In this document: positions 5,646 through 57,131 of the stretch, in pieces
Numbering within the stretch: the first letter of the stretch is position 1
Layout of the letters: every line of letters starts with the position of its first letter
Source of the DNA: Escherichia phage FL12
Length of the DNA: 64,000 nt
Sequence record: PP400786
Reading direction: 5' to 3' (one strand)
The notes under the pieces: model-generated
What the model was told of the DNA's origin: nothing
What the model saw: the letters and a program-made list of their open reading frames with translations, nothing else
Databases searched by the model: none
Program-made: the position numbers and the translations under genes

Positions 5646-5677
5646 AATTATACCACATCCTTGTGGTAAAGTAAACT
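5646..5677 (-). promoter_or_regulatory. T4-type early promoter upstream of rIIA.1/rIIA
   Basis: Minus strand GTTTAC-TTTACCACAAGGATGTGG-TATAAT. Confidence 0.5.
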
Positions 5678-5777
5678 ACTGGCTCATCCATTCTTTACGA
5701 AGGTCAGGATTAAATGGGACTGCACGAGATGGGATAAACATAACTTTCATAATTAAGCCTTATTAAAATTAAAACGA

Positions 5778-5793
5778 AGCTCCCGAAGGAGCT
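5778..5793 (-). terminator. UUCG-tetraloop hairpin plus U-tract after HNH gene
   Basis: Minus strand AGCUCC-UUCG-GGAGCU followed by UCGUUUUAAUUUU. Confidence 0.6.
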
Positions 5794-6605
5794 TAGGACA
5801 TCCAACACATTTTATAACCTTTGCAGGTTCTGTTAGGATTATTTAATGCTTTCAATATATTAGAAGACCCTATATCTAAATACTCCCTTAATTCATAAAG
5901 ATAGTTAAAATCAACAGTTTCACCTGTTTTTACACTTGTGATTCTTATAGGCCTTCTTTCATATTTAGATTTATACAACTCTCTAGTCTTAGCTTTAGTT
6001 TCTTCTGACCTAGGAGTGTATGGTTTAAATCCTTTTGTTTTAAATGTTTCCATTCTTGATTTAGTTATTTTATCCTGGTGTTCTTTTGTTTTTACAGGTG
6101 CTTTTCGCCCATTCTCCCAAGATAACTTGTTGGCCTGTATTATTTTATCTATTGCTTCTTGCGTATGAGTTTTACCATAAAATGGATTTAATTCGCCTAT
6201 ACGTTGTGAAGCAATATGTGACATTAATTCTCTTGTTGCTTTAGTATGTTTTTTACCTTTAAATGGGTTGCCATTTTTAGCAATCCATTCTTTCATAAAT
6301 CTAGAGTGCTCTTTAGAGAATTCTTGTTTAAGCCAATCATAATCTCTAGAATTTCTAGCTCCCATGTAAAAAGCTCTAATAGCCATAAGCATAGAACGGT
6401 TCTTATGAATTTTATAAAGCAATAAATGGGCGATAAAATGCTCTCTAGGGGTCATTTTAACTAGATTTGATTTAGCATTACTCCCGCCCATAGATTTAGG
6501 CAAAATATGGTGAGTTTCAGTATAATTAGGAATAGTGCTGCGGTTTTTAGCCGCAGCGATAAGTTTATCATAAATTTTACGATAATTCATTATCGTAGCA
6601 TCCAA
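5793..6605 (-). CDS. HNH homing endonuclease (Mob-type) with NUMOD-like repeats
   Basis: 270 aa; HNH motif ETHHILPKSMGGSN...REH; repeated NPF(Y/K)GK(T/K)HT motifs; sits between rIIA.1 and gp39 as mobA does in T4; 5' end overlaps gp39 3' end. Confidence 0.75.
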   Translation of the reverse strand: MDATIMNYRKIYDKLIAAAKNRSTIPNYTETHHILPKSMGGSNAKSNLVKMTPREHFIAHLLLYKIHKNRSMLMAIRAFYMGARNSRDYDWLKQEFSKEHSRFMKEWIAKNGNPFKGKKHTKATRELMSHIASQRIGELNPFYGKTHTQEAIDKIIQANKLSWENGRKAPVKTKEHQDKITKSRMETFKTKGFKPYTPRSEETKAKTRELYKSKYERRPIRITSVKTGETVDFNYLYELREYLDIGSSNILKALNNPNRTCKGYKMCWMS

Positions 6606-8410
6606 TCTTTACGGAGTTCAGGGTCGTTACCCATGAGCATTTCAAATAGTTCTTTCCAATTTTCAGGAAGTTTAACTACGTCGTACACAGGGTTTTGAAT
6701 CATTTCTTTATATTCATCCCGCTGAAGTGAGCCCAATCCCTTGATGTATCGAATACTATGCTTAGGCAGTGTATCTTTAGCTTCTTCATACTCAGCTACA
6801 GTATAAAACCATTTTTGAGTTTTGCCAATTTGTGCAATAATTACAGGCGTTTTAACAAAGCGAATACGTCCTTGTTCAAACAATTCAGGCCAATTACTAA
6901 AGAAAGCAAGCAAAGCCGGATAAATACTTCCAAGTCCGTCATGATCGGCATCGGTCATAATAGCAATATTATGATAATTCAAGTTTTCAGCTTTTTCACC
7001 GAGAACTAATCCAGTGATTGCGCAAATATCAAATAGTTCTTTGTTTTTAAGCATATCTGCATAAGACATACCCCAACTGTTGAGAACTTTACCACGCAAT
7101 GGATAACCACCGTGAAGTTCTTTATCACGAACATCAATAAGATATCCGATAGCAGAATCACCCTCAGTCAAGAAAAGAGTAGTGTCAGCATCTTTACCAC
7201 AAAGATTCGCTTTGATATGTTTATGAACCTTAGCTTTAGAAGCCTTTTTAGCTGCCTTTGTTTCTGCTGCTTTTTCTGCCGCCAATTTACGAGCTAGTGC
7301 AGCTTCAATAATCGGCATTAAAATTGCTTCATTATTCAAAATAGCACGTGAAATCTTTTTAGCATCAAGTTGAATATGACTACGGATTTCACCAAATGGA
7401 GAAGTCAAACGCTCTTTAGTTTGAGAATCAAATCGCATGTTTTTCATATCACGAACAAACATAACGATAGTCAAACATTCTTTGACACGCGCTTTAGTTA
7501 CATCAATTTTGAACTTGCGTTTGATTTGTGGAATAAGGTCTTCACAAATATCATCCATAACACAGTCAATGTGATGGCCACCATTCTTAGTATGAATGTT
7601 ATTCACATAAGTTAATTGACGAAAACCATCCGGTGAACGACCAACCGCAATAGAACAGTTTTCTTGTTCTTGAACGATAGCATGCTCATCATACTGCCGT
7701 GCATATTTCTTAAAATTGCCCTGAACCTTTTTACCATTAAAGGTAAATTGAATATCAGGATAAACAACAGCAAGTGTCTGGAGACGATCCAGTGTAATGT
7801 CAAGATAAACCTGAGACAGCTCATTAGTTTCAAATGACATAAAATCAGGAATGAAAGTAACGCGAGTTCCTTTCCATTTTCCAGGAATATCTTCCCATGA
7901 TTTATTTTCCATGCCGTTTGAACAACGAACTACAATATTATTTTGACCATCGCCAGTTTCACCAACAAACATCACAGAAAAAATGTTTGTCAAACTAGAA
8001 CCAACACCATTCATACCACCGGTGACACGTTCTTTATCATCACCAAAGTTACCACCTGCTTTTGGAATAGTCCATGCAGCAACAGGACCAGGAATTTCTT
8101 CACCGGTAGGTGTTTTAACCATCGCTTGTGGAATACCACGACCGTTATCTTCAACTGTTACTTGATTGTTTTTAATAGTAACATTAATTTTATTTGCGAA
8201 TTTAAACTTAGTACGAATACCTTCATCTACTGAGTTATCGATAATTTCATCAATAAGCTTAACAAGACCAGGTACATACTGAACACTTTCCCATTTACCA
8301 AACAGAAAGCGCTCATGCATTTCATTAGCTGAAGAGCCAATGTACATGCCGCTACGCTTTTTGATATGTTCAATATCGCTCAGAATTTTAATTTCATTCT
8401 TAATCATCAC
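6590..8410 (-). CDS. 39: DNA topoisomerase II large subunit gp39 (GyrB-like ATPase; apparently fused 39+60 form)
   Basis: 606 aa; N-terminus MIKNEIKILSDIEHIKKRSGMYIGS typical of gp39/GyrB; Toprim-like region; single uninterrupted ORF. Confidence 0.85.
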   Translation of the reverse strand: MMIKNEIKILSDIEHIKKRSGMYIGSSANEMHERFLFGKWESVQYVPGLVKLIDEIIDNSVDEGIRTKFKFANKINVTIKNNQVTVEDNGRGIPQAMVKTPTGEEIPGPVAAWTIPKAGGNFGDDKERVTGGMNGVGSSLTNIFSVMFVGETGDGQNNIVVRCSNGMENKSWEDIPGKWKGTRVTFIPDFMSFETNELSQVYLDITLDRLQTLAVVYPDIQFTFNGKKVQGNFKKYARQYDEHAIVQEQENCSIAVGRSPDGFRQLTYVNNIHTKNGGHHIDCVMDDICEDLIPQIKRKFKIDVTKARVKECLTIVMFVRDMKNMRFDSQTKERLTSPFGEIRSHIQLDAKKISRAILNNEAILMPIIEAALARKLAAEKAAETKAAKKASKAKVHKHIKANLCGKDADTTLFLTEGDSAIGYLIDVRDKELHGGYPLRGKVLNSWGMSYADMLKNKELFDICAITGLVLGEKAENLNYHNIAIMTDADHDGLGSIYPALLAFFSNWPELFEQGRIRFVKTPVIIAQIGKTQKWFYTVAEYEEAKDTLPKHSIRYIKGLGSLQRDEYKEMIQNPVYDVVKLPENWKELFEMLMGNDPELRKDWMLR

Positions 8411-19398: not shown

Positions 19399-19608
19399 TT
19401 AAATTACATGATTATTTATAATAAATTCTCGCGGAACGTTAAAATATCCGATTTTAGTTAATATAACAACATCACCGTTAATAATTACCGGAGAATAATC
19501 TTCTGGAGCATTAAATTTCCAATGGGCTCTAATATTATATCCATCAGAACCAAATGCTCGAGTAGCCGGTCTCCCGGCTTTTTGCCACGCGTAGAAATCA
19601 AATTTCAT
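19399..19608 (-). CDS. hypothetical small protein
   Basis: 69 aa ORF. Confidence 0.45.
   Translation of the reverse strand: MKFDFYAWQKAGRPATRAFGSDGYNIRAHWKFNAPEDYSPVIINGDVVILTKIGYFNVPREFIINNHVI
19414..19421 (-). promoter_or_regulatory. late promoter TATAAATA upstream of soc
   Basis: Plus-strand TATTTATA about 35 nt upstream of soc start; soc is a capsid (late) gene. Confidence 0.5.
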
Positions 19609-19805
19609 TTTGAATGCTCTATAATTAATTTTAAGGCTTCTTCGCTGACAAAAATTTCGTCAGGACCTTCTTCTATAACCCAATCAACCATACGAAGTTG
19701 ATTAGTTAAGAGCTCACATACGAGCTCCTTGTTATAATCTTTAAATAGCTGGTTAATACGTTTCTTATGGGCTTTCTTAAGCTGACGCTTATTTAAACGA
19801 GCCAT
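19605..19805 (-). CDS. hypothetical small basic protein
   Basis: 66 aa ORF. Confidence 0.45.
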   Translation of the reverse strand: MARLNKRQLKKAHKKRINQLFKDYNKELVCELLTNQLRMVDWVIEEGPDEIFVSEEALKLIIEHSK

Positions 19806-20323
19806 TAATAACCTCGGTCTTGACGAGCGAAGTTTTCAGCATTTTTCAGGTAATAAAGTTTAAAGATTTCTTCAGCTGACATTCCAAGAGCAATAAATTT
19901 ATTCATGAAAAAGTGAAATTGGTCAATCAGTTCAAATTTAATTTCAAGCTGATCTTCGGGAGATAAATCTTGAATTTTCTTGGATTGCATTTCAGAATAA
20001 CGTTTCTTCCAAGGTTTCCATACAGCAGAAGCTTCTTTTTCACCATTACTCATACCACCAAGAGAAGTATATAGTTCGCGAGTTTCATCTGCGATATAAT
20101 CGTCTTGGTTTCGCAACCAAGCAAGAACTTCTCCTGCGGTTTCAAGTGAATCAGGATGACGATTTGTTTCTGGTTTATCATTAGCCAAACGAATCTGTAA
20201 ATGCCGCTGCATATCAAGCATAACCTGCAGTGGGTCAATATTGTGCATAATATTCTCAGCATATGCACGATTTGCTTTATCAACACCTTCGATCAAATGA
20301 GCACATTCATTAAAGTAAGCCAT
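19805..20323 (-). CDS. 56: dCTP pyrophosphatase gp56 (MazG-like)
   Basis: About 172 aa from internal ATG (MAYFNECAHL...); all-alpha NTP-PPase-like; ORF-track N-terminal extension reads into the intergenic promoter. Confidence 0.65.
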   Translation of the reverse strand: MAYFNECAHLIEGVDKANRAYAENIMHNIDPLQVMLDMQRHLQIRLANDKPETNRHPDSLETAGEVLAWLRNQDDYIADETRELYTSLGGMSNGEKEASAVWKPWKKRYSEMQSKKIQDLSPEDQLEIKFELIDQFHFFMNKFIALGMSAEEIFKLYYLKNAENFARQDRGY

Positions 20324-20394
20324 TATTTTTCCTTTCAATTCATGGGTTAGTAGATTAATTATACAATAAATATATAAAGCAATAAGGAGGACAT

Positions 20395-26589: not shown

Positions 26590-27267
26590 TTATAGTAGTG
26601 TTCTTGTTCCACGAAATACTTCGAGCATTCTTGCATAAGATTTATTTGGAAATCCAGCTTCAATTGCTAATTTTTTAAGCTTAATAGCACCGGGTTTTCC
26701 AGAGTTTTCCCATATTTCTTTAATCTTTTCAATGTTATCCCACATTATTGGGTCACGTTTATGTGATGGTTTATTTCTATTATAACCATATGGATTATTA
26801 AGCAAAGCTTCTTTTCGTTTTGCTTTAGTTTCTTCTGACTGCTTTTTGCCTAGCTGGGCTTTCCGGCAAACATCACTAAATCCAAGATGTTTTGGTTTTC
26901 CTTTTTGAGCTTTTGAAATTTTTTCTTTGGTTTCTGATGAAACTCTATAACCAATTCTTCTACCACCCTCTCCACCAATTTTTAAATTATAAGTCATAGG
27001 ATCATTTACCACATCTATTGTTACTAATTCTCTTTCAGCATCACGGGCTGATTTAAAATCTTTATAAAACCCAAGAATGCTTAAATTAAAATTTTTCTTA
27101 CCATACTTTTTCTTGGCTTGTGCTAATAAAGTTCCTGATCCCATATAACCATCATTTAAATCATCGGTTGAATGAGTTCCATAGTAAATTTTATTATTAA
27201 CTAAATTAGTTATAACATAAGTATAATTATATTTCTTTTCTTTATGTCTTTTCATGTCATTAATCAA
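26590..27267 (-). CDS. segA: GIY-YIG homing endonuclease (SegA-like)
   Basis: 225 aa; GIY-YIG motif YTYVITNLVNNKIYYGTHS; between uvsX and beta-gt as segA in T4. Confidence 0.7.
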   Translation of the reverse strand: MINDMKRHKEKKYNYTYVITNLVNNKIYYGTHSTDDLNDGYMGSGTLLAQAKKKYGKKNFNLSILGFYKDFKSARDAERELVTIDVVNDPMTYNLKIGGEGGRRIGYRVSSETKEKISKAQKGKPKHLGFSDVCRKAQLGKKQSEETKAKRKEALLNNPYGYNRNKPSHKRDPIMWDNIEKIKEIWENSGKPGAIKLKKLAIEAGFPNKSYARMLEVFRGTRTLL

Positions 27268-39643: not shown

Positions 39644-40844
39644 ATTTTGTAATAATGTCAAACTGTTCTTTAAAGCAGAAGCTTGAATCTTGATGCTGAT
39701 ACAAAAATTCATATGCTTTTTCTCGCTCACGGTCATAAAGAACTCGGTCAGATGACAATTCTTTAATACGTTCAAATGTTGATTCCATGTCATTTTCATC
39801 AAACCAAATGATACCGCTATCATGTGAGGTCAAAGGAGTATTATCAACACGGAATTTTAAATTTTCGCCAGTAGATTTCCAGAAAACAGGAATTGTACCG
39901 CAAGCACCTAATTCAAGATGAGTATATTCGAGTGAGCGTTGTAAGTATTTCTGGTTAAGTTTACTCAACTGATATCCAAAGCCAGATTTACTCATTCGTT
40001 CAAGCATTTCACTATTAATATAACAATCTAGGATTTGTGCCGGTTGATTCGGCGCGAGATTCATTTTATCAATCTCACGATTACCGTAATATTCATGCGG
40101 AATACCTTTTTCCTTAATTGCAATAAAAGCAGGGGAACGTTCAAGACCTTCCATTACAGTGGATTTACCAGCAGGTTTTAAGAATTTTTCATGAAAATCA
40201 AACATCTGATAAAAACCTTTCCATGTAGTCGTACGACCAATCCAACGGTTGGTGTTCATGTTAATTTCAGAAACATCTTTCCAATAAGTTGACCGAACCT
40301 TCGCAATATCCATAGGAGGCTGAAAATTATATACTGTTGGTGCTTCTTCAATATCATCAAACAGAGAAACAGTTTCTGGATACCATTCTTTCATCAGAAC
40401 TTTATTAAAATCACCATTATCAGAATGGCTAAAAATAACATCAGCTCGACGAACAGTTTCTTCTAATCCCAAATTTCGACGCAAAGAAAGAACAGAATGA
40501 TCATGCTGATAAACTACAACACGAATAGAAGGTTTAATATTATCTAAAAGTTTTTTATAGTTATTAATCGTAGCTTCTTGAACGGAAGTAGCAGGAACAG
40601 AATTAATAATTAGAATATCACAATCATTTACCAGCTTAAGTGCTTTATCGTATTCTTTAGCTAAAATAACTGGAATTGAAAATGATTTGTGGTCATGAGA
40701 ACTTGTACGAGTAAATGATTTATCTTTAGCATAAACCAAAGTTACTTCATGGCCATTTTTAATAAACCAATCACGCTGCTCAAGAGAAAATTTAGTTACA
40801 CCGCAACCTTCAAGACCCCGAGCCAGAAAAATGCATACTTTCAT
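39642..40844 (-). CDS. agt: DNA alpha-glucosyltransferase
   Basis: 400 aa as T4 alpha-gt; between 55 region and 47. Confidence 0.7.
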   Translation of the reverse strand: MKVCIFLARGLEGCGVTKFSLEQRDWFIKNGHEVTLVYAKDKSFTRTSSHDHKSFSIPVILAKEYDKALKLVNDCDILIINSVPATSVQEATINNYKKLLDNIKPSIRVVVYQHDHSVLSLRRNLGLEETVRRADVIFSHSDNGDFNKVLMKEWYPETVSLFDDIEEAPTVYNFQPPMDIAKVRSTYWKDVSEINMNTNRWIGRTTTWKGFYQMFDFHEKFLKPAGKSTVMEGLERSPAFIAIKEKGIPHEYYGNREIDKMNLAPNQPAQILDCYINSEMLERMSKSGFGYQLSKLNQKYLQRSLEYTHLELGACGTIPVFWKSTGENLKFRVDNTPLTSHDSGIIWFDENDMESTFERIKELSSDRVLYDREREKAYEFLYQHQDSSFCFKEQFDIITK

Positions 40845-40899
40845 TTAATATCCTCTTTGTTTTGGTTTATTTTATCAAAAAAATTTATAAAGCAATATA

Positions 40900-44622: not shown

Positions 44623-45093
44623 TTAATCATGTTTCCACACCCCATCGGTATTTGACCAAAGTCGCTGATTATCTGATCCTCGCCACAGCTTTTTGGTCGG
44701 AAGATTTTTCTCATACTTCCCATCAATAATAACATCAACATATTTAAGCATTTCTAGTTGTTTAATATCTTCAAATTTATATCCTGTCCACAACCAAATG
44801 CTTTTATTGGGATAAAGATTTTTTACTGTTTGAACAATGCAATGAACAACATCTCGGTTATCAGGATAGAGAGGGTCTCCTCCAGTTATAGTTAATCCTT
44901 CTATATAATCATTATTCAAACATTCAATTAATTGTTCTAGTGTTTCACCAGTGAATGGAACGCCATTTCTAGCGTTCCATGTTGATTTATTATAACACCC
45001 TTCACATTTATGCAAACAACCTGTAACGAAAAGAACGACCCTGCATCCAGGGCCATTCACAAAATCGCAAGGATAAAATCTATCATAATTCAT
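44623..45093 (-). CDS. nrdG: anaerobic ribonucleotide reductase activase NrdG (radical SAM)
   Basis: 156 aa as T4 NrdG; Cys cluster CLHKCEGC. Confidence 0.85.
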   Translation of the reverse strand: MNYDRFYPCDFVNGPGCRVVLFVTGCLHKCEGCYNKSTWNARNGVPFTGETLEQLIECLNNDYIEGLTITGGDPLYPDNRDVVHCIVQTVKNLYPNKSIWLWTGYKFEDIKQLEMLKYVDVIIDGKYEKNLPTKKLWRGSDNQRLWSNTDGVWKHD

Positions 45094-46907
45094 TGGTGTT
45101 TAACCCTATGCATGATTTCTTTATTTTTGCCGAGATTAAATCCACGTTCGTTCGGATTTCCCAAATAACCACAAGTTCTTCTTATTGTGTTCATCTTTTT
45201 AGGATCAGTTTCTCCACAAATAGAACAAACAAACCCGTTTTCAGTAGGAGTCATTTCATGGGTACTTCCACACGTAAAACATTTATCTACTGGCATGTTA
45301 ACACCAAAATAATCTAAATGTTGTGCAGCATAATCCCATACAGCCTCAAGACCTTTTAGGTTATTTTTCATATCAGGAAGTTCAACATAAGAAATGTGAC
45401 CGCCTGTCGCAATGAAATGATATGGGGCTTCGCGAGAAATCTTTTCAAACGGAGTAATATTTTCTTCTACTGAAACGTGGAAACTGTTAGTGTACCAGCC
45501 TTTATCAGTAACATCCTTTACACTTCCATATTTCTCAGTATCAAGTTTACAGAAGCGATAACAAAGGTTTTCAGCAGGTGTAGAATACAAGCTAAAAGCA
45601 AAACCAGTTCTTTCAGTCCACTGCTTAAGACGAGCATTCATTTTAGTTAAAATTTCCTGTCCAATATCACGACCGACAAGAATATTCAATTCGTGAATAC
45701 CAATGTATCCTAAGGACACTGAACTTCTACCGTTTTTAAATAACTCAATTATATCATCATCGGGTTTAAGACGAACCCCGAATGCACCTTCTTGGTAAAG
45801 AATAGGAGCAACAGTAGCTTTAACTCCTTTTAATGAACTAATTCTACACATCAATGCTTCAAAACACAAATCCATTCGTTCATTGAACAATTCGGCAAAT
45901 TTCTGTTCATTGAACTGTGTTCCAATATAAGAATCTAATGCAATACGAGGAAGATTCAGTGTTACAACGCCAAGATTATTACGTCCATCAAGAATTTCAT
46001 TACCAGTCGAATCTTTCCATACGCTCAAGAAACTGCGGCAACCCATTGGAGAAACAGGAATAGATGAACCTGTGATAGCTTTATTGTTCTTAGCTGAAAT
46101 AATATCAGGATACATTCTTTTGCTTGCACACTCTAGAGCAAGCTGCTTAATATCATAGTTCGGATCGTCTTTATAAAGATTAACACCTTCTTCAACGAAC
46201 ATAACAAGCTTAGGGAAAATAGGAGTTATCCCATCGCGACCAAGGCCTTTAATACGATTTTTCAGAATTGCTTTCTGAATCATTCGTTCAGTCCAGTCAG
46301 TTCCCGTGCCAAATGTAATTGTTACAAAAGGCGTTTGTCCATTTGAACTAAAGAGAGTATTTACTTCATATTCATAAGCTTGGAACGCATCGTATACGTC
46401 TTTTTCTGTTTTAGATTGGGCATAATTCAACGCATCAGCGATTTGCCATTTTTCTGCATCCTCAATATGTTTTGCATAGGTGCGTTTAACATAAGGAGAA
46501 AGGACTTTGTCTACATTTGCAAAAGTCGTTCCACCGTATTGATGGGAAGCAACCTGTGCAGTAATTTGTGCCATAATTGCAGTAGCAACACCGATTGATT
46601 TAGGAGTTTCAATCTGTGCATTACCGAGCTTAAATCCGTTCTCAAGCATTCCTTTTAAATCTACTAAACAGCAATTAGTAAATGGAAGAGCAGGGGAATA
46701 ATCAATATCATGGAAATGAATAATTCCGCTTTCATGCGCTTTCATAATAAAAGACGGGACCATATTTTTGGCAATGTGTTTAGACACAATACCAGCCATA
46801 AGGTCCCGTTGAGTTGGAAAAACACGAGAATCTTTATTAGCATTCTCGTTCAAAAGGTCTTTATTAGTTTTATGAATCAATCCTTCAATTTCTTTTTCAA
46901 TTGTCAT
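45090..46907 (-). CDS. nrdD: anaerobic ribonucleoside-triphosphate reductase NrdD (glycyl radical enzyme)
   Basis: 605 aa as T4 NrdD; C-terminal Zn-ribbon cysteines and glycyl-radical motif RTCGYLG; uninterrupted. Confidence 0.9.
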   Translation of the reverse strand: MTIEKEIEGLIHKTNKDLLNENANKDSRVFPTQRDLMAGIVSKHIAKNMVPSFIMKAHESGIIHFHDIDYSPALPFTNCCLVDLKGMLENGFKLGNAQIETPKSIGVATAIMAQITAQVASHQYGGTTFANVDKVLSPYVKRTYAKHIEDAEKWQIADALNYAQSKTEKDVYDAFQAYEYEVNTLFSSNGQTPFVTITFGTGTDWTERMIQKAILKNRIKGLGRDGITPIFPKLVMFVEEGVNLYKDDPNYDIKQLALECASKRMYPDIISAKNNKAITGSSIPVSPMGCRSFLSVWKDSTGNEILDGRNNLGVVTLNLPRIALDSYIGTQFNEQKFAELFNERMDLCFEALMCRISSLKGVKATVAPILYQEGAFGVRLKPDDDIIELFKNGRSSVSLGYIGIHELNILVGRDIGQEILTKMNARLKQWTERTGFAFSLYSTPAENLCYRFCKLDTEKYGSVKDVTDKGWYTNSFHVSVEENITPFEKISREAPYHFIATGGHISYVELPDMKNNLKGLEAVWDYAAQHLDYFGVNMPVDKCFTCGSTHEMTPTENGFVCSICGETDPKKMNTIRRTCGYLGNPNERGFNLGKNKEIMHRVKHQ

Positions 46908-53558: not shown

Positions 53559-54279
53559 TTAGGATTCTTCTAAATGTCTTTTCTGAAAAGTTGATACCAT
53601 ACTACGATACGGTTCATTTGGATATCCGTGTTTTATAGCTTCCTTTGTAAATTTTCTCCATCCACATTTAGTTTCTTTCCAGAGCTCGAATAATTCATCT
53701 TCATACTGCCATATAGTTAAATGAGAACGCTTTGCAGCTTTAATTCCATTAATATGCTTTTCTTTTACTGCAGGATTGCTTAGTTTCTTTTTAATAATAT
53801 TACTAACTTTTCTAACAAAAACCGGGTCCTTATATCGTTGCGAAGTTTTTATTGAAGTGTTTTAATTTAGCTTCCGGCGTGGATGTGACCTCTTTCATCT
53901 TTTTCTTCATATGCTGTATATGATTAGGATTTTTCCATAAATTTATAGAATGCTTTTTGCATTTTATCCTAGTTTCATCTGCAACCTTTCCTCCTTCACC
54001 CCCGTATGACAGGTTAACACAGTTTTTCCCATATTTCAATTTACCTGCCATGATATATAATATTTCAGCTTGTACCATTTTATCATAATTATCAAAAACT
54101 TCTAAAACCGTTTTTGATAATATGTGGTCATTTGACACTTTTACACGTTCTATATAATTTCCACTACCAACATACGAATCATTGATATTATTAGTTATAT
54201 GTCGACCATAATAGTATTTCTTAATACCTGTCTTTAAATTTAATATTTCAGTTTTATAGATAGTAAAATATTTTTCATT
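53559..54279 (-). pseudogene. decayed Seg-like GIY-YIG homing endonuclease gene, split across frames
   Basis: GIY-YIG N-terminus EKYFTIYKTEILNLKTGIKKYYYGRH...YVGSG lacks an in-frame start (ATG is 1 nt out of frame in an A5 run); middle ...KYGKNCVNLSYGGEGG and C-terminal ...IWQYEDELFELWKETK... segments homologous to the intact SegA-like protein but in a different frame. Confidence 0.5.
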
Positions 54280-55357: not shown

Positions 55358-56368
55358 TCATTTATAATAACTTCGGTGGTTTTCAAGATAGACCTTCTCA
55401 AGGAAGTCATCCCAAAAACCCATGTCTACTTTTTGCTGCATACCGTTCTTAGAAGCTTCAATAGATGCTGCTTCTACTTGATCGACCACATCTTCCAAAA
55501 ACTCTTGAACCGTTTTAAATGGATGTTTACCCAACTTCACGTCGAGAATAAATGGAGCATCTTTGAGTGGATAAACCAAGTCACCAGTTTTGTAAATTTC
55601 CAATAGTTGAAGTCCACCACGACAAGCATGACTCAAAGCTTTCCAGTCAATACCTTCGTTGGCTTCGGCCTTACGAGCACGTTCACCATATTCAGCATCT
55701 AGTTTGTTCAGTGACTGCTTAAGCTCAATAAGAGAAAGCGTTGTCTGATATTTACGACCCAACACAGTGTAGAACGTTTGTGGGCCTGTTTTCTCATGAT
55801 TATGGAACACCCATTCACAAAATTCGTTTTCTGGAAGACGATGCTTAATATCTTCAACTTTAGTGCGACGTTGCTTAATAGAACCATCTTCTTGGTAATC
55901 AACCCATTGCTCAGGGATTTGATTAACTACTTTCAATACATCACGTAATGCAGCCAAACGAGAACCCTTGACACCGTATTTAGAAGCTTGCTTGCGGACA
56001 TATCCTAAATATGATTTCATGTTAGTCGTATAAAAACGAGAACGGTTGTCTTGAATAAACTTCCACACATCAGGCAAATCAGATTTAACCACTAGCTCAG
56101 GTGGAGTGTGAAGCATATCTAATGCTACAGTTTCACCATCTGCTGCTAATTTAAAGAAATATTTAAGACTGTATAGTTCATGGTCAATATCATCTTTAGT
56201 GTTTTTAGATGATGTGTTGTTAGTGTTTTTACTCATGTGCTCTTTGACATTTCCGATAAGAATATCGCGAGCAGGAGGAACAAAAATTTCTTTAAAATCT
56301 ACATCAGATTCTGGGGTAGAAGTTCCATAAAGATGACTACCAAAATAAGACTTAACTACAGTTTTCAT
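55358..56368 (-). CDS. predicted nucleotidyltransferase (pol-beta-like fold)
   Basis: About 336 aa; NTase signature GSHLYGTSTPESDVDF; start overlaps 3' end of HNH gene. Confidence 0.6.
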   Translation of the reverse strand: MKTVVKSYFGSHLYGTSTPESDVDFKEIFVPPARDILIGNVKEHMSKNTNNTSSKNTKDDIDHELYSLKYFFKLAADGETVALDMLHTPPELVVKSDLPDVWKFIQDNRSRFYTTNMKSYLGYVRKQASKYGVKGSRLAALRDVLKVVNQIPEQWVDYQEDGSIKQRRTKVEDIKHRLPENEFCEWVFHNHEKTGPQTFYTVLGRKYQTTLSLIELKQSLNKLDAEYGERARKAEANEGIDWKALSHACRGGLQLLEIYKTGDLVYPLKDAPFILDVKLGKHPFKTVQEFLEDVVDQVEAASIEASKNGMQQKVDMGFWDDFLEKVYLENHRSYYK

Positions 56369-57131
56369 TATTAGACCTTTCATAATCTTCATTAAATTGT
56401 ACAATCAATCGATGATAATTAGATTTTGGATATCCTAATTTACTTATATAAGTTCCGAATGACCCACGTTTAGGTCTATTTAATTTAATCCATAACTTAT
56501 AAAGTAAGTCATAGTCTTGCCAATGTTTACCAGTTCTTTGTCTAATTTTAGATGAATTTGATTGTTTCTTTTTAGTTTCAAAATTATTCAAAGATTTTTT
56601 GACTGCAGCAGAGTGTTTTTCTTTAACTCCCGGTCGTTTAAAAGCAGCTTTCACCCCTTTAGATATTTTTTCTTTAACTTCCGGTTTGTTTTGTGCTTCT
56701 AACTGGGATTCTGAAATTTTAGCCCTTATTTCAGGAAGACTTAATGTTATCGAACGTTTTTCTCTGTATTCATTAGACTTCCACATTTCTTTCATTGTAT
56801 TAGAATGTATTTTTGAAAATTTTTCTCTAACTAACTGATATCCTCTTGAAGTTAATTTGAGATTTCTTCCTAAAGAATCTTCTCCAAAATTATAAAATGA
56901 CCACCATGCATAAATTAATCCAGGCGAATTATAATGAATTTTAGCTAAAAGCCAATGGGCTATAAAATGCTCTCTAGCTGTTAATAAAACTAGATTATCA
57001 GAATCATCATTACCACCAATACAAGATGGAATAATATGATGCTTTTCCGTATAAAAATTTAATTTAGATTTATCTAATTTTCTGAGTTTTCCTTTCTTAA
57101 TTAAATTATTATATACTTTAGTATAATTCAT
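56352..57131 (-). CDS. HNH homing endonuclease (Mob-type, mobD position)
   Basis: 259 aa; HNH motif EKHHIIPSCIGGNDDSDNLVLLTAREH; paralog of 5793-6605. Confidence 0.75.
   Translation of the reverse strand: MNYTKVYNNLIKKGKLRKLDKSKLNFYTEKHHIIPSCIGGNDDSDNLVLLTAREHFIAHWLLAKIHYNSPGLIYAWWSFYNFGEDSLGRNLKLTSRGYQLVREKFSKIHSNTMKEMWKSNEYREKRSITLSLPEIRAKISESQLEAQNKPEVKEKISKGVKAAFKRPGVKEKHSAAVKKSLNNFETKKKQSNSSKIRQRTGKHWQDYDLLYKLWIKLNRPKRGSFGTYISKLGYPKSNYHRLIVQFNEDYERSNNENCS

Follow-up and report, generated by a model that had tools for sequence, protein, structure and literature searches.

A putative Mob-type HNH homing endonuclease gene at the 3′ end of gene 39 in Escherichia phage FL12, very probably acquired from a Mosigvirus donor

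Escherichia phage FL12 (PP400786) carries a predicted Mob-type HNH homing endonuclease gene at the very 3′ end of gene 39, the gene for the large subunit of its topoisomerase II. We consider it highly probable that this gene belongs to a mobile cassette which a Tequatrovirus lineage acquired from a Mosigvirus donor in a single founding event, and which then spread. Our analysis covers a stretch of 64,000 nucleotides (nt) from this phage, referred to as the window, and the features discussed are collected with their positions in Table 1. The cassette is a mobile element of a known kind, and its behaviour, judged by analogy with described systems, matches intronless homing. New here are an uncharacterised clade of HNH genes tied to the 3′ end of topoisomerase genes, with a testable prediction of the target, and what appears to be a recent transfer of DNA from RB69-like to T4-like phages, although these two groups have been reported not to recombine (PMC6024577).

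The HNH gene and the Mosigvirus-type tract around it

The window is of Tequatrovirus (T4-type) origin, its closest megablast records being 97–98% identical and none of them identical. The genes around the finding all lie on the minus strand, in the order rIIB, rIIA, rIIA.1, HNH open reading frame (ORF) and gene 39. A beta-glucosyltransferase ORF is present and the alignment with T4 spans the alpha-gt gene, which points to a phage of the glucosyl-hydroxymethylcytosine (glucosyl-hmC) type. Gene 39 is a single fused ORF, as had been noticed from the sequence alone, unlike in T4, where genes 39 and 60 are separated by the mobA region. Its 5′ part (8410 to approximately 6962) is of native Tequatrovirus type and its final approximately 360 nt are of Mosigvirus type. 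In a sliding comparison, gene 39 is 97.5% identical to that of the Tequatrovirus G8, which lacks the HNH gene, over the first 1448 nt and 75.8% identical over the last 360 nt; against the Mosigvirus phi25-307 the identity is 74.6% over the 5′ part and then about 99.5% over the 3′ part. The switch of type falls between the diagnostic sites 6962 and 6953. The point at which T4 is split into 39 and 60 maps to 6990/6926 of the window, approximately 340–400 nt upstream of the HNH gene; the closeness of the left tract boundary to this split was considered as a meaningful coincidence and set aside, crossovers in the most conserved Toprim stretch (DxDxDG) being the apparent cause.

From the left switch onwards the tract runs through the end of gene 39 and the HNH gene, takes in the terminator of Mosigvirus gene 39 and stops 49 nt into an ORF003c-like gene. 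Its flanks are only about 75% identical to Mosigvirus, and rIIA.1, just past the tract, is 75% identical to its counterpart in phi25-307. At the right junction, the two types meet at a microhomology of CTGACC (5707–5702), with TAATNCTGACC matching at 10 of 11 positions. In RB69, ORF003c has been proposed to be the arabinosyltransferase (PMC6024577), and the presence of a fragment of this Mosigvirus gene in the tract gives the direction of transfer as Mosigvirus to Tequatrovirus.

How the gene sits in gene 39 can be read from its Mosigvirus setting. In PhAPEC2, an HNH-less Mosigvirus with the original site, gene 39 ends in ...AAAGAATGGATG TCC TAA; the hairpin GCTCCTTCGGGAGC and a T run come next, and then an intact 366-residue (aa) gene begins, annotated as RB69 ORF003c-like. 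In HNH-bearing Mosigviruses the insert lies between two copies of TGGATG within the last codons of gene 39; gp39 acquires the tail L-G-stop, the ATG of the HNH gene shares its A with that stop, and the HNH ORF ends in ...TGT TGG ATG TCC TAA, which is the former end of Mosigvirus gene 39 with its stop and terminator. Both insert boundaries run from coding to coding sequence. The HNH gene is embedded in the 3′ end of gene 39 and reuses the stop and terminator of the Mosigvirus gene, an arrangement that the sequence-only reading had missed, together with the Mosigvirus origin of the whole tract and the displaced remnant of the native tail.

In the window, the replacement tail of gp39 reads ...LMGNDPELRKDWMLR before the stop. 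G8 gene 39 ends in ...GCTGACCTTCGTAAAGAATGGATGAGCCAATAG, directly followed by the promoter-like site upstream of rIIA.1, and this native Tequatrovirus tail persists in the window downstream of the HNH gene (5701–5676, plus shared bases to 5712). There, the 5′ end of the ORF003c-like gene (5750–5702), complete with a ribosome site, runs on in frame into the displaced tail (5701–5676), and the promoter-like site behind it is left unaffected. The resulting 24-codon ORF is a by-product of the insertion, as is the overlap of about 16 nt with gene 39 that had been reported for the HNH gene, and neither is a designed feature. This overlap arises because longest-ORF calling begins the gene at a TTG (6605). 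The start given in Table 1 is backed by RefSeq annotations of identical genes and by the conserved Mob N-terminus MNY.K.Y, and the arrangement is therefore TAATG, with a true overlap of 1 nt.

The HNH ORF itself, called at 5793–6605 on the minus strand in the sequence-only reading, is confirmed: its product has an HNH motif and matches phrog_655, "homing endonuclease" (E 1.1e-55), and Pfam NUMOD3 (E 5e-9), the latter in two stretches that follow the N-terminal HNH domain. The catalytic motif (HH ... N ... H..H) is found in ETHHILPKSMGGSNAKSNLVKMTPREHFIAH; an alignment of 33 sequences shows no variation at N42, H51 and H55 and at least 90% conservation of H27 and H28. It aligns to the HNH of McrA, for which the match in the PDB sequence search is weak (E 0.39), and no solved structure gave a significant match to the protein in sequence or fold. 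Pfam HNH stays below threshold for the MobD paralog and for the clade members described below. Among the T4 Mob proteins, similarity is seen to MobB (44.8% over 116 aa, E 4e-24), MobD (45% over 115 aa) and MobC (46% over 69 aa). The C-terminal 60 aa are common only to the clade relatives (P0002–P0004), and no named Pfam domain was found in the C-terminal 57 aa. The gene is free-standing and lies on the same strand as gene 39 and rIIA.1. An intron-encoded HNH endonuclease (I-HmuI, I-TevIII) was rejected, as the insert boundaries are coding-to-coding and no group I intron was detected in the window, where no Rfam family reached its gathering score. Judged by sequence, motif, architecture and population pattern, the protein is a predicted Mob-type free-standing HNH homing endonuclease of phrog_655. 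In the literature we found no characterisation of the gene, only mentions in genome announcements and annotations.

Expression of the HNH gene is probably promoter-less and coupled to translation of gene 39. Neither the late-promoter motif TATAAATA nor a strong promoter was found upstream of the gene, and the sole late-promoter-like match, TATAAAGA, lies inside a group of substitutions in gene 39 (cluster A, see below). The lack of a late promoter, the terminator after the gene and the position of the start codon in a hairpin shared with the gene 39 stop together make coupling likely, and translational coupling has been proposed for several T4 endonuclease genes (PMC2988022). The fold of 6650–6520 gives z = −4.3 against shuffled sequences. 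A C at 6595 (G→C), private to the window, closes a pair that is a G–G mismatch in all other copies and completes the 8-bp hairpin; it also makes the last residue of gp39 Arg instead of Gly and removes a Shine–Dalgarno-like AGGA found 2 nt before the HNH ATG in all 27 other copies. The window may thus carry an attenuated allele of the HNH gene. A further change, I→V at 5915, is likewise private to this copy.

Distribution and spread of the cassette

Full-length copies of the HNH gene occur in 27 of approximately 700 related phage records (20 Mosigvirus and 7 Tequatrovirus), all at this position. These copies are at least 98.5% identical, with the next full-length matches in the same collection at approximately 35%; 25 of them are intact ORFs, found across both genera, and two are frameshifted. 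A scan of IMG/VR added one further copy (phiE142-like) and unrelated relatives matching at the N-terminus only, and nothing else new. The gene is missing, with clean boundaries, from about 140 Mosigvirus records and several hundred Tequatrovirus records. Comparison with such relatives, proposed earlier as a way of defining the insertion, does define it, the HNH-less phages having clean and uninterrupted native ends; the gene is far from being ancestral and fixed in every lineage.

The chimeric right junction is identical in all five HNH-bearing Tequatroviruses and was found in 7 of 651 matching records. This common junction indicates a single founding event. The left boundaries of the same phages vary, lying at 6962/6953 in the window, at approximately 7006/6992 with patches in fPS-90, F1 and BYEP01, and at 6767/6761 in CJY920. 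Over 1291 nt of the 5′ part of gene 39, the window shows 28 differences from the HNH-less G8 and 34–55 from HNH-bearing phages; being nearer to G8 in this part while near-identical to the HNH-bearing phages in the core of the cassette, it shows that the cassette sits on diverse backgrounds. Between Tequatrovirus backgrounds whose flanks differ at 2–4.5% of positions, the cassette differs at about 0.2–0.5%.

The CJY920 record (PQ349265.1, marked UNVERIFIED) has the shortest Mosigvirus-type tract, beginning at approximately 6761. It also contains an insert of 1,106 nt at the T4 39|60 split (equivalent to window 6990/6926) that matches the MobA bypass element in size and position; together with the HNH gene at the 3′ end this amounts to two HNH elements in one topoisomerase gene.

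Seven HNH-less Mosigviruses (LF82-4, at 868–895 of the sequence compared, TH12, phiEC1, TH58, OLB35, NHEP36 and CCU7) have the complete gene 39 3′ allele of the HNH-bearing type, with a stretch of 19 nt (CTTGGTTAATTGATAGATG) at the position of the HNH gene. The stretch resembles both ends of the insert and is probably a deletion scar, the alternative being a pre-insertion allele.

Outside these phages, a search of approximately 5.8 billion proteins returned only three other full-length relatives, 41–45% identical. All three directly follow a topoisomerase large-subunit gene, in T4-like contigs that are otherwise different. In the first of these (L024, a metagenomic contig with relative P0002), the HNH gene as called shares 16 nt with the topoisomerase gene, like the longest-ORF call in the window, and its stop is overlapped by a displaced native tail (LRKEWMNQ-stop), a repeat of the design with a new tail plus a displaced native one. 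The two genes share ATGA in a second contig (L028), and a hairpin lies between them in the third (L027). By sequence, the HNH gene of the window groups in a small clade that is always located at the 3′ end of a phage topoisomerase II large-subunit gene. A 235-aa ORF with Endonuclease_7 (PF02945) is found at 1144–1851 of L024, immediately upstream of the topoisomerase gene; this may be a second mobile nuclease gene bordering that host gene.

Candidate target site and course of the transfer

The HNH-bearing and HNH-less Mosigvirus alleles of gene 39 show only scattered single differences upstream of 6734, and two clusters of differences, A and B, below it (Table 1). At cluster A, both HNH-less genera encode KGLGSL-EKSEYR-EMIQNP, and the hexapeptide reads QRDEYK, QRSEYG, SQDEYG and TEDEYS in four HNH-bearing lineages. 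The best candidate for the target and immunity site of the enzyme is this KGLGSL-EKSEYR coding region, an assignment that we favour by a narrow balance and that three observations together bracket. The first comes from two HNH-less phages, JM17 (Mosigvirus) and SP21535 (Tequatrovirus), in which cluster A alone is converted and cluster B is native; the converted patch in SP21535 is bounded at approximately 6781–6663 and centred on cluster A. Both phages are predicted to be resistant survivors, or to carry short conversion tracts that stopped before the HNH gene. The second is the minimal Mosigvirus tract common to all HNH-bearing Tequatroviruses, approximately 6761–6590, and the third is the retention of the recipient's tail, which places the founding break upstream of approximately 6626.

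Classical homing would instead place the target at the insertion junction or in cluster B, within the last approximately 60 nt of gene 39, and cluster A would then be hitch-hiking variation. Cluster B differs strongly between HNH-bearing and HNH-less alleles and abuts the insertion point, and many HNH enzymes nick near their own insertion site. However, JM17 and SP21535 combine a converted cluster A with a native cluster B in two genera, the L024 lineage has a near-native protein sequence at cluster B (GDNADLRKEWMGQ) yet a changed cluster A, and the founding Tequatrovirus recipient kept its own last 26–37 nt, with the break upstream of those. A target at the junction or in cluster B, the main alternative to cluster A, is for these reasons rather unlikely.

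The transfer would have taken place in a mixed infection of a Mosigvirus (RB69-like) donor and a glucosyl-hmC Tequatrovirus recipient. A nick or cut made by the enzyme in an HNH-less gene 39, close to the KGLGSL-EKSEYR coding region, would be repaired by copying of the donor through the HNH gene. Because the two genera differ downstream of gene 39, the copied strand would rejoin the recipient illegitimately, at the 6-nt microhomology inside the recipient gene 39 tail. Three marks would remain of such a founding event: a gene 39 3′ end of Mosigvirus type, a 49-nt piece of the ORF003c-like gene and the native tail in its displaced position. Homing or homologous recombination would afterwards carry the cassette into other Tequatrovirus backgrounds, with conversion tracts that vary in length.

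Alternatively, the gene could have been moved as a passive or inactive passenger by ordinary phage recombination, homologous at the left end and illegitimate at the right, with no endonuclease break. T-even genomes are mosaics, SP21535 has Mosigvirus-type patches elsewhere in gene 39 while lacking the HNH gene, and two copies of the gene are frameshifted. Further points weigh against an active homing cassette that targets cluster A. Enzymatic activity, a cleavage site and preferential inheritance are predictions for the HNH protein, and the window copy bears the private changes at 6595 and 5915. The clustered substitutions are also present in the seven HNH-less Mosigviruses and could belong to a pre-existing allele rather than being immunity changes. 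The second Mosigvirus-type patch of SP21535 is unrelated to cluster A, and ordinary mosaicism contributes to the pattern. Finally, no HNH-less sister of the L024 lineage was found that would replicate the association with cluster A, there being no cultured phage above approximately 79% identity.

A passenger role nevertheless appears improbable to us. In the stretch compared, gene 39 through rIIA.1, a single Mosigvirus tract was detected, with a homing endonuclease gene exactly at its centre, and the cassette has diverged far less than its flanks between Tequatrovirus backgrounds. Nearly all copies across the two genera are intact, and members of the clade occupy the 3′ end of the topoisomerase gene in three more lineages. 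An ancestral presence of the gene here in T4-type phages, followed by loss in most lineages, would agree with the occurrence of its relatives at this gene end in several distant lineages, but can be set aside as extremely improbable, as the Tequatrovirus copies come with a Mosigvirus-only gene fragment and a gene 39 end of Mosigvirus type, the native tail having been moved downstream, the coliphage copies are near-identical while the host genes are approximately 75% identical at the nucleotide level, and the native ends of HNH-less phages are intact and uninterrupted.

Acquisition of the cassette from a Mosigvirus donor thus stands as the preferred reading, and it represents a case of natural intronless homing resolved from sequence data, in which empty sensitive sites, copies with and without frameshifts, what may be a deletion scar, and partial conversions that lack the homing endonuclease gene are all represented. 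More tentatively, an endonuclease-made break might be what allowed DNA to cross between the RB69-type (arabinosyl-hmC) and T4-type (glucosyl-hmC) genera, dragging neighbouring donor DNA along through a one-sided microhomology join, in this case 49 nt from the start of the putative arabinosyltransferase gene, and the clade might be a recurrent vehicle of gene flow between genera. If this is true, the topoisomerase-end HNH clade could carry DNA-modification genes from one genus to another. The proposed target in the KGLGSL-EKSEYR coding site is directly testable.

Other endonuclease genes and comparison with known systems

The sequence-only reading had described the window as heavily loaded with homing endonuclease genes. 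The individual genes were recognised correctly, but "heavy" does not hold, as three intact genes and one pseudogene compare with seven in the same interval of T4 (mobA, segF, segA, mobB, mobC, I-TevII and mobD). The window is without segF, mobB, mobC, mobA and the nrdD intron. Clean empty sites are found at 40835–40860, 45073–45093 and 46369–46372, where T4 has mobB, mobC and the nrdD intron with I-TevII. At the place of segF (window 19420–20343), the adjacent gene 56 region is approximately 76% identical to T4 with surroundings at 94–98%, which fits the known polymorphism between SegF-sensitive and SegF-resistant gene 56.

The second HNH gene is the ortholog of mobD, which is absent from T2. 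Alignment of the two HNH proteins bears out their description as paralogs (36% identity over 202 aa, E 2e-24), and the reported overlap with the start of the nucleotidyltransferase gene is also there: the 3′ end of mobD overlaps the start of nrdC.11 by 17 nt, exactly as annotated in T4. The intact GIY-YIG gene, called at 26590–27267, encodes T4 SegA (99.5% identity; Pfam GIY-YIG). The decayed GIY-YIG gene could be located between nrdC.9 and nrdC.10. Its counterpart in phage FL08 is intact (239 aa), and the window copy departs from it by two frameshifts, a run close behind the ATG being shorter by one A and an additional A standing at 53863. Both are single-A changes in or beside A runs, and sequencing error is possible. 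Its ATG overlaps the nrdC.10 stop (ATGA), and neither T4 nor T2 has the gene. Endonuclease genes that overlap adjacent ORFs have already been described as a theme in T4 (PMC2988022).

Table 1. Positions of the features discussed, in window coordinates.
Feature	Position	Strand	Basis or remark
Mob-type HNH homing endonuclease gene (putative), 265 aa	5793..6590	-	ATG 6590-6588, TAA 5795-5793
Mosigvirus-derived tract, 1,252 nt	5702..6953	-	6 mismatches in 1,252 nt against phi25-307 (99.5% identity)
Gene 39, topoisomerase II large subunit, single 606-aa ORF	6590..8410	-	ORF; Pfam HATPase, GyrB, Toprim, TOPRIM_C
Cluster A (candidate target), coding for SLQRDEYKE in the window; HNH-less phages of either genus have SLEKSEYRE	6707..6734	-	Adjoins conserved KGLG motif
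Cluster B and replacement gp39 tail, second candidate target/immunity site	6590..6647	-	Differences between HNH-bearing and HNH-less alleles
Predicted RNA hairpin UACGAUAA-UGAA-UUAUCGUA over gene 39 stop and HNH start codon	6578..6597	-	Fold
Intrinsic-terminator hairpin (GCTCCTTCGGGAGC and T run)	5777..5794	-	Native Mosigvirus gene 39 terminator carried with the cassette
Chimeric 24-codon ORF (MKVMFIPSRAVPFNPDLRKEWMSQ, stop)	5676..5750	-	ORF003c-like 5′ end joined in frame to native gene 39 tail
Native promoter-like site upstream of rIIA.1, TTTACT-17-TATAAT	5647..5675	-	Unaffected by the insertion
mobD ortholog, second HNH paralog	56352..57131	-	99.6% identical to T4 MobD
segA ortholog, GIY-YIG	26590..27255	-	T4-equivalent start 27255
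Seg-like GIY-YIG pseudogene between nrdC.9 and nrdC.10	~53559..54278	-	Two frameshifts, against FL08

Among known systems, the MobA element of T4 is found in the same host gene and has a Mob-type HNH N-terminal domain (53% over 45 aa). It is likewise a mobile cassette that brings its own replacement topoisomerase coding sequence; inserted at Topo2L nt 1399–1419, it splits the gene, with C- and N-terminal extensions (CTE/NTE) and a translational bypass of 50 nt (bioRxiv 10.1101/2022.08.31.505936). Unlike it, the window element lies approximately 400 nt further downstream, at the last codons, and leaves gene 39 fused, and the C-terminal half of its protein is unrelated to MobA. Orthology to MobA was rejected, as tblastn against the T4 mobA region matches residues 1–71 only and the insertion site differs. 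MobD of T4 belongs to the same phrog_655, is 36% identical over 202 aa, has NUMOD3-like repeats and is polymorphic among T-even phages; it differs in its locus (upstream of nrdC.11) and in its C-terminal region, and its target is listed as unknown (PMC2988022, Table 1). The HNH nicking endonucleases of the I-HmuI type, from introns of Bacillus phages, show the same layout of an HNH domain, an extended linker with NUMOD modules and a small C-terminal DNA-binding module, and the clade member P0004 matches PF22083 (I-HmuI_NUMOD-like) below threshold.

The closest parallels in behaviour are the T4 cases of intronless homing, SegF with gene 56, SegG with gene 32 and MobE with nrdB, which were shown by crosses and cleavage mapping (PMC2988022). 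As in these, a homing endonuclease gene lies beside its proposed target gene, with a diverged and presumably resistant allele and co-conversion over variable tracts. Unlike these, the case described here is drawn from comparative sequence, and it would cross a genus boundary, through one illegitimate microhomology junction and with donor DNA hitch-hiking along.

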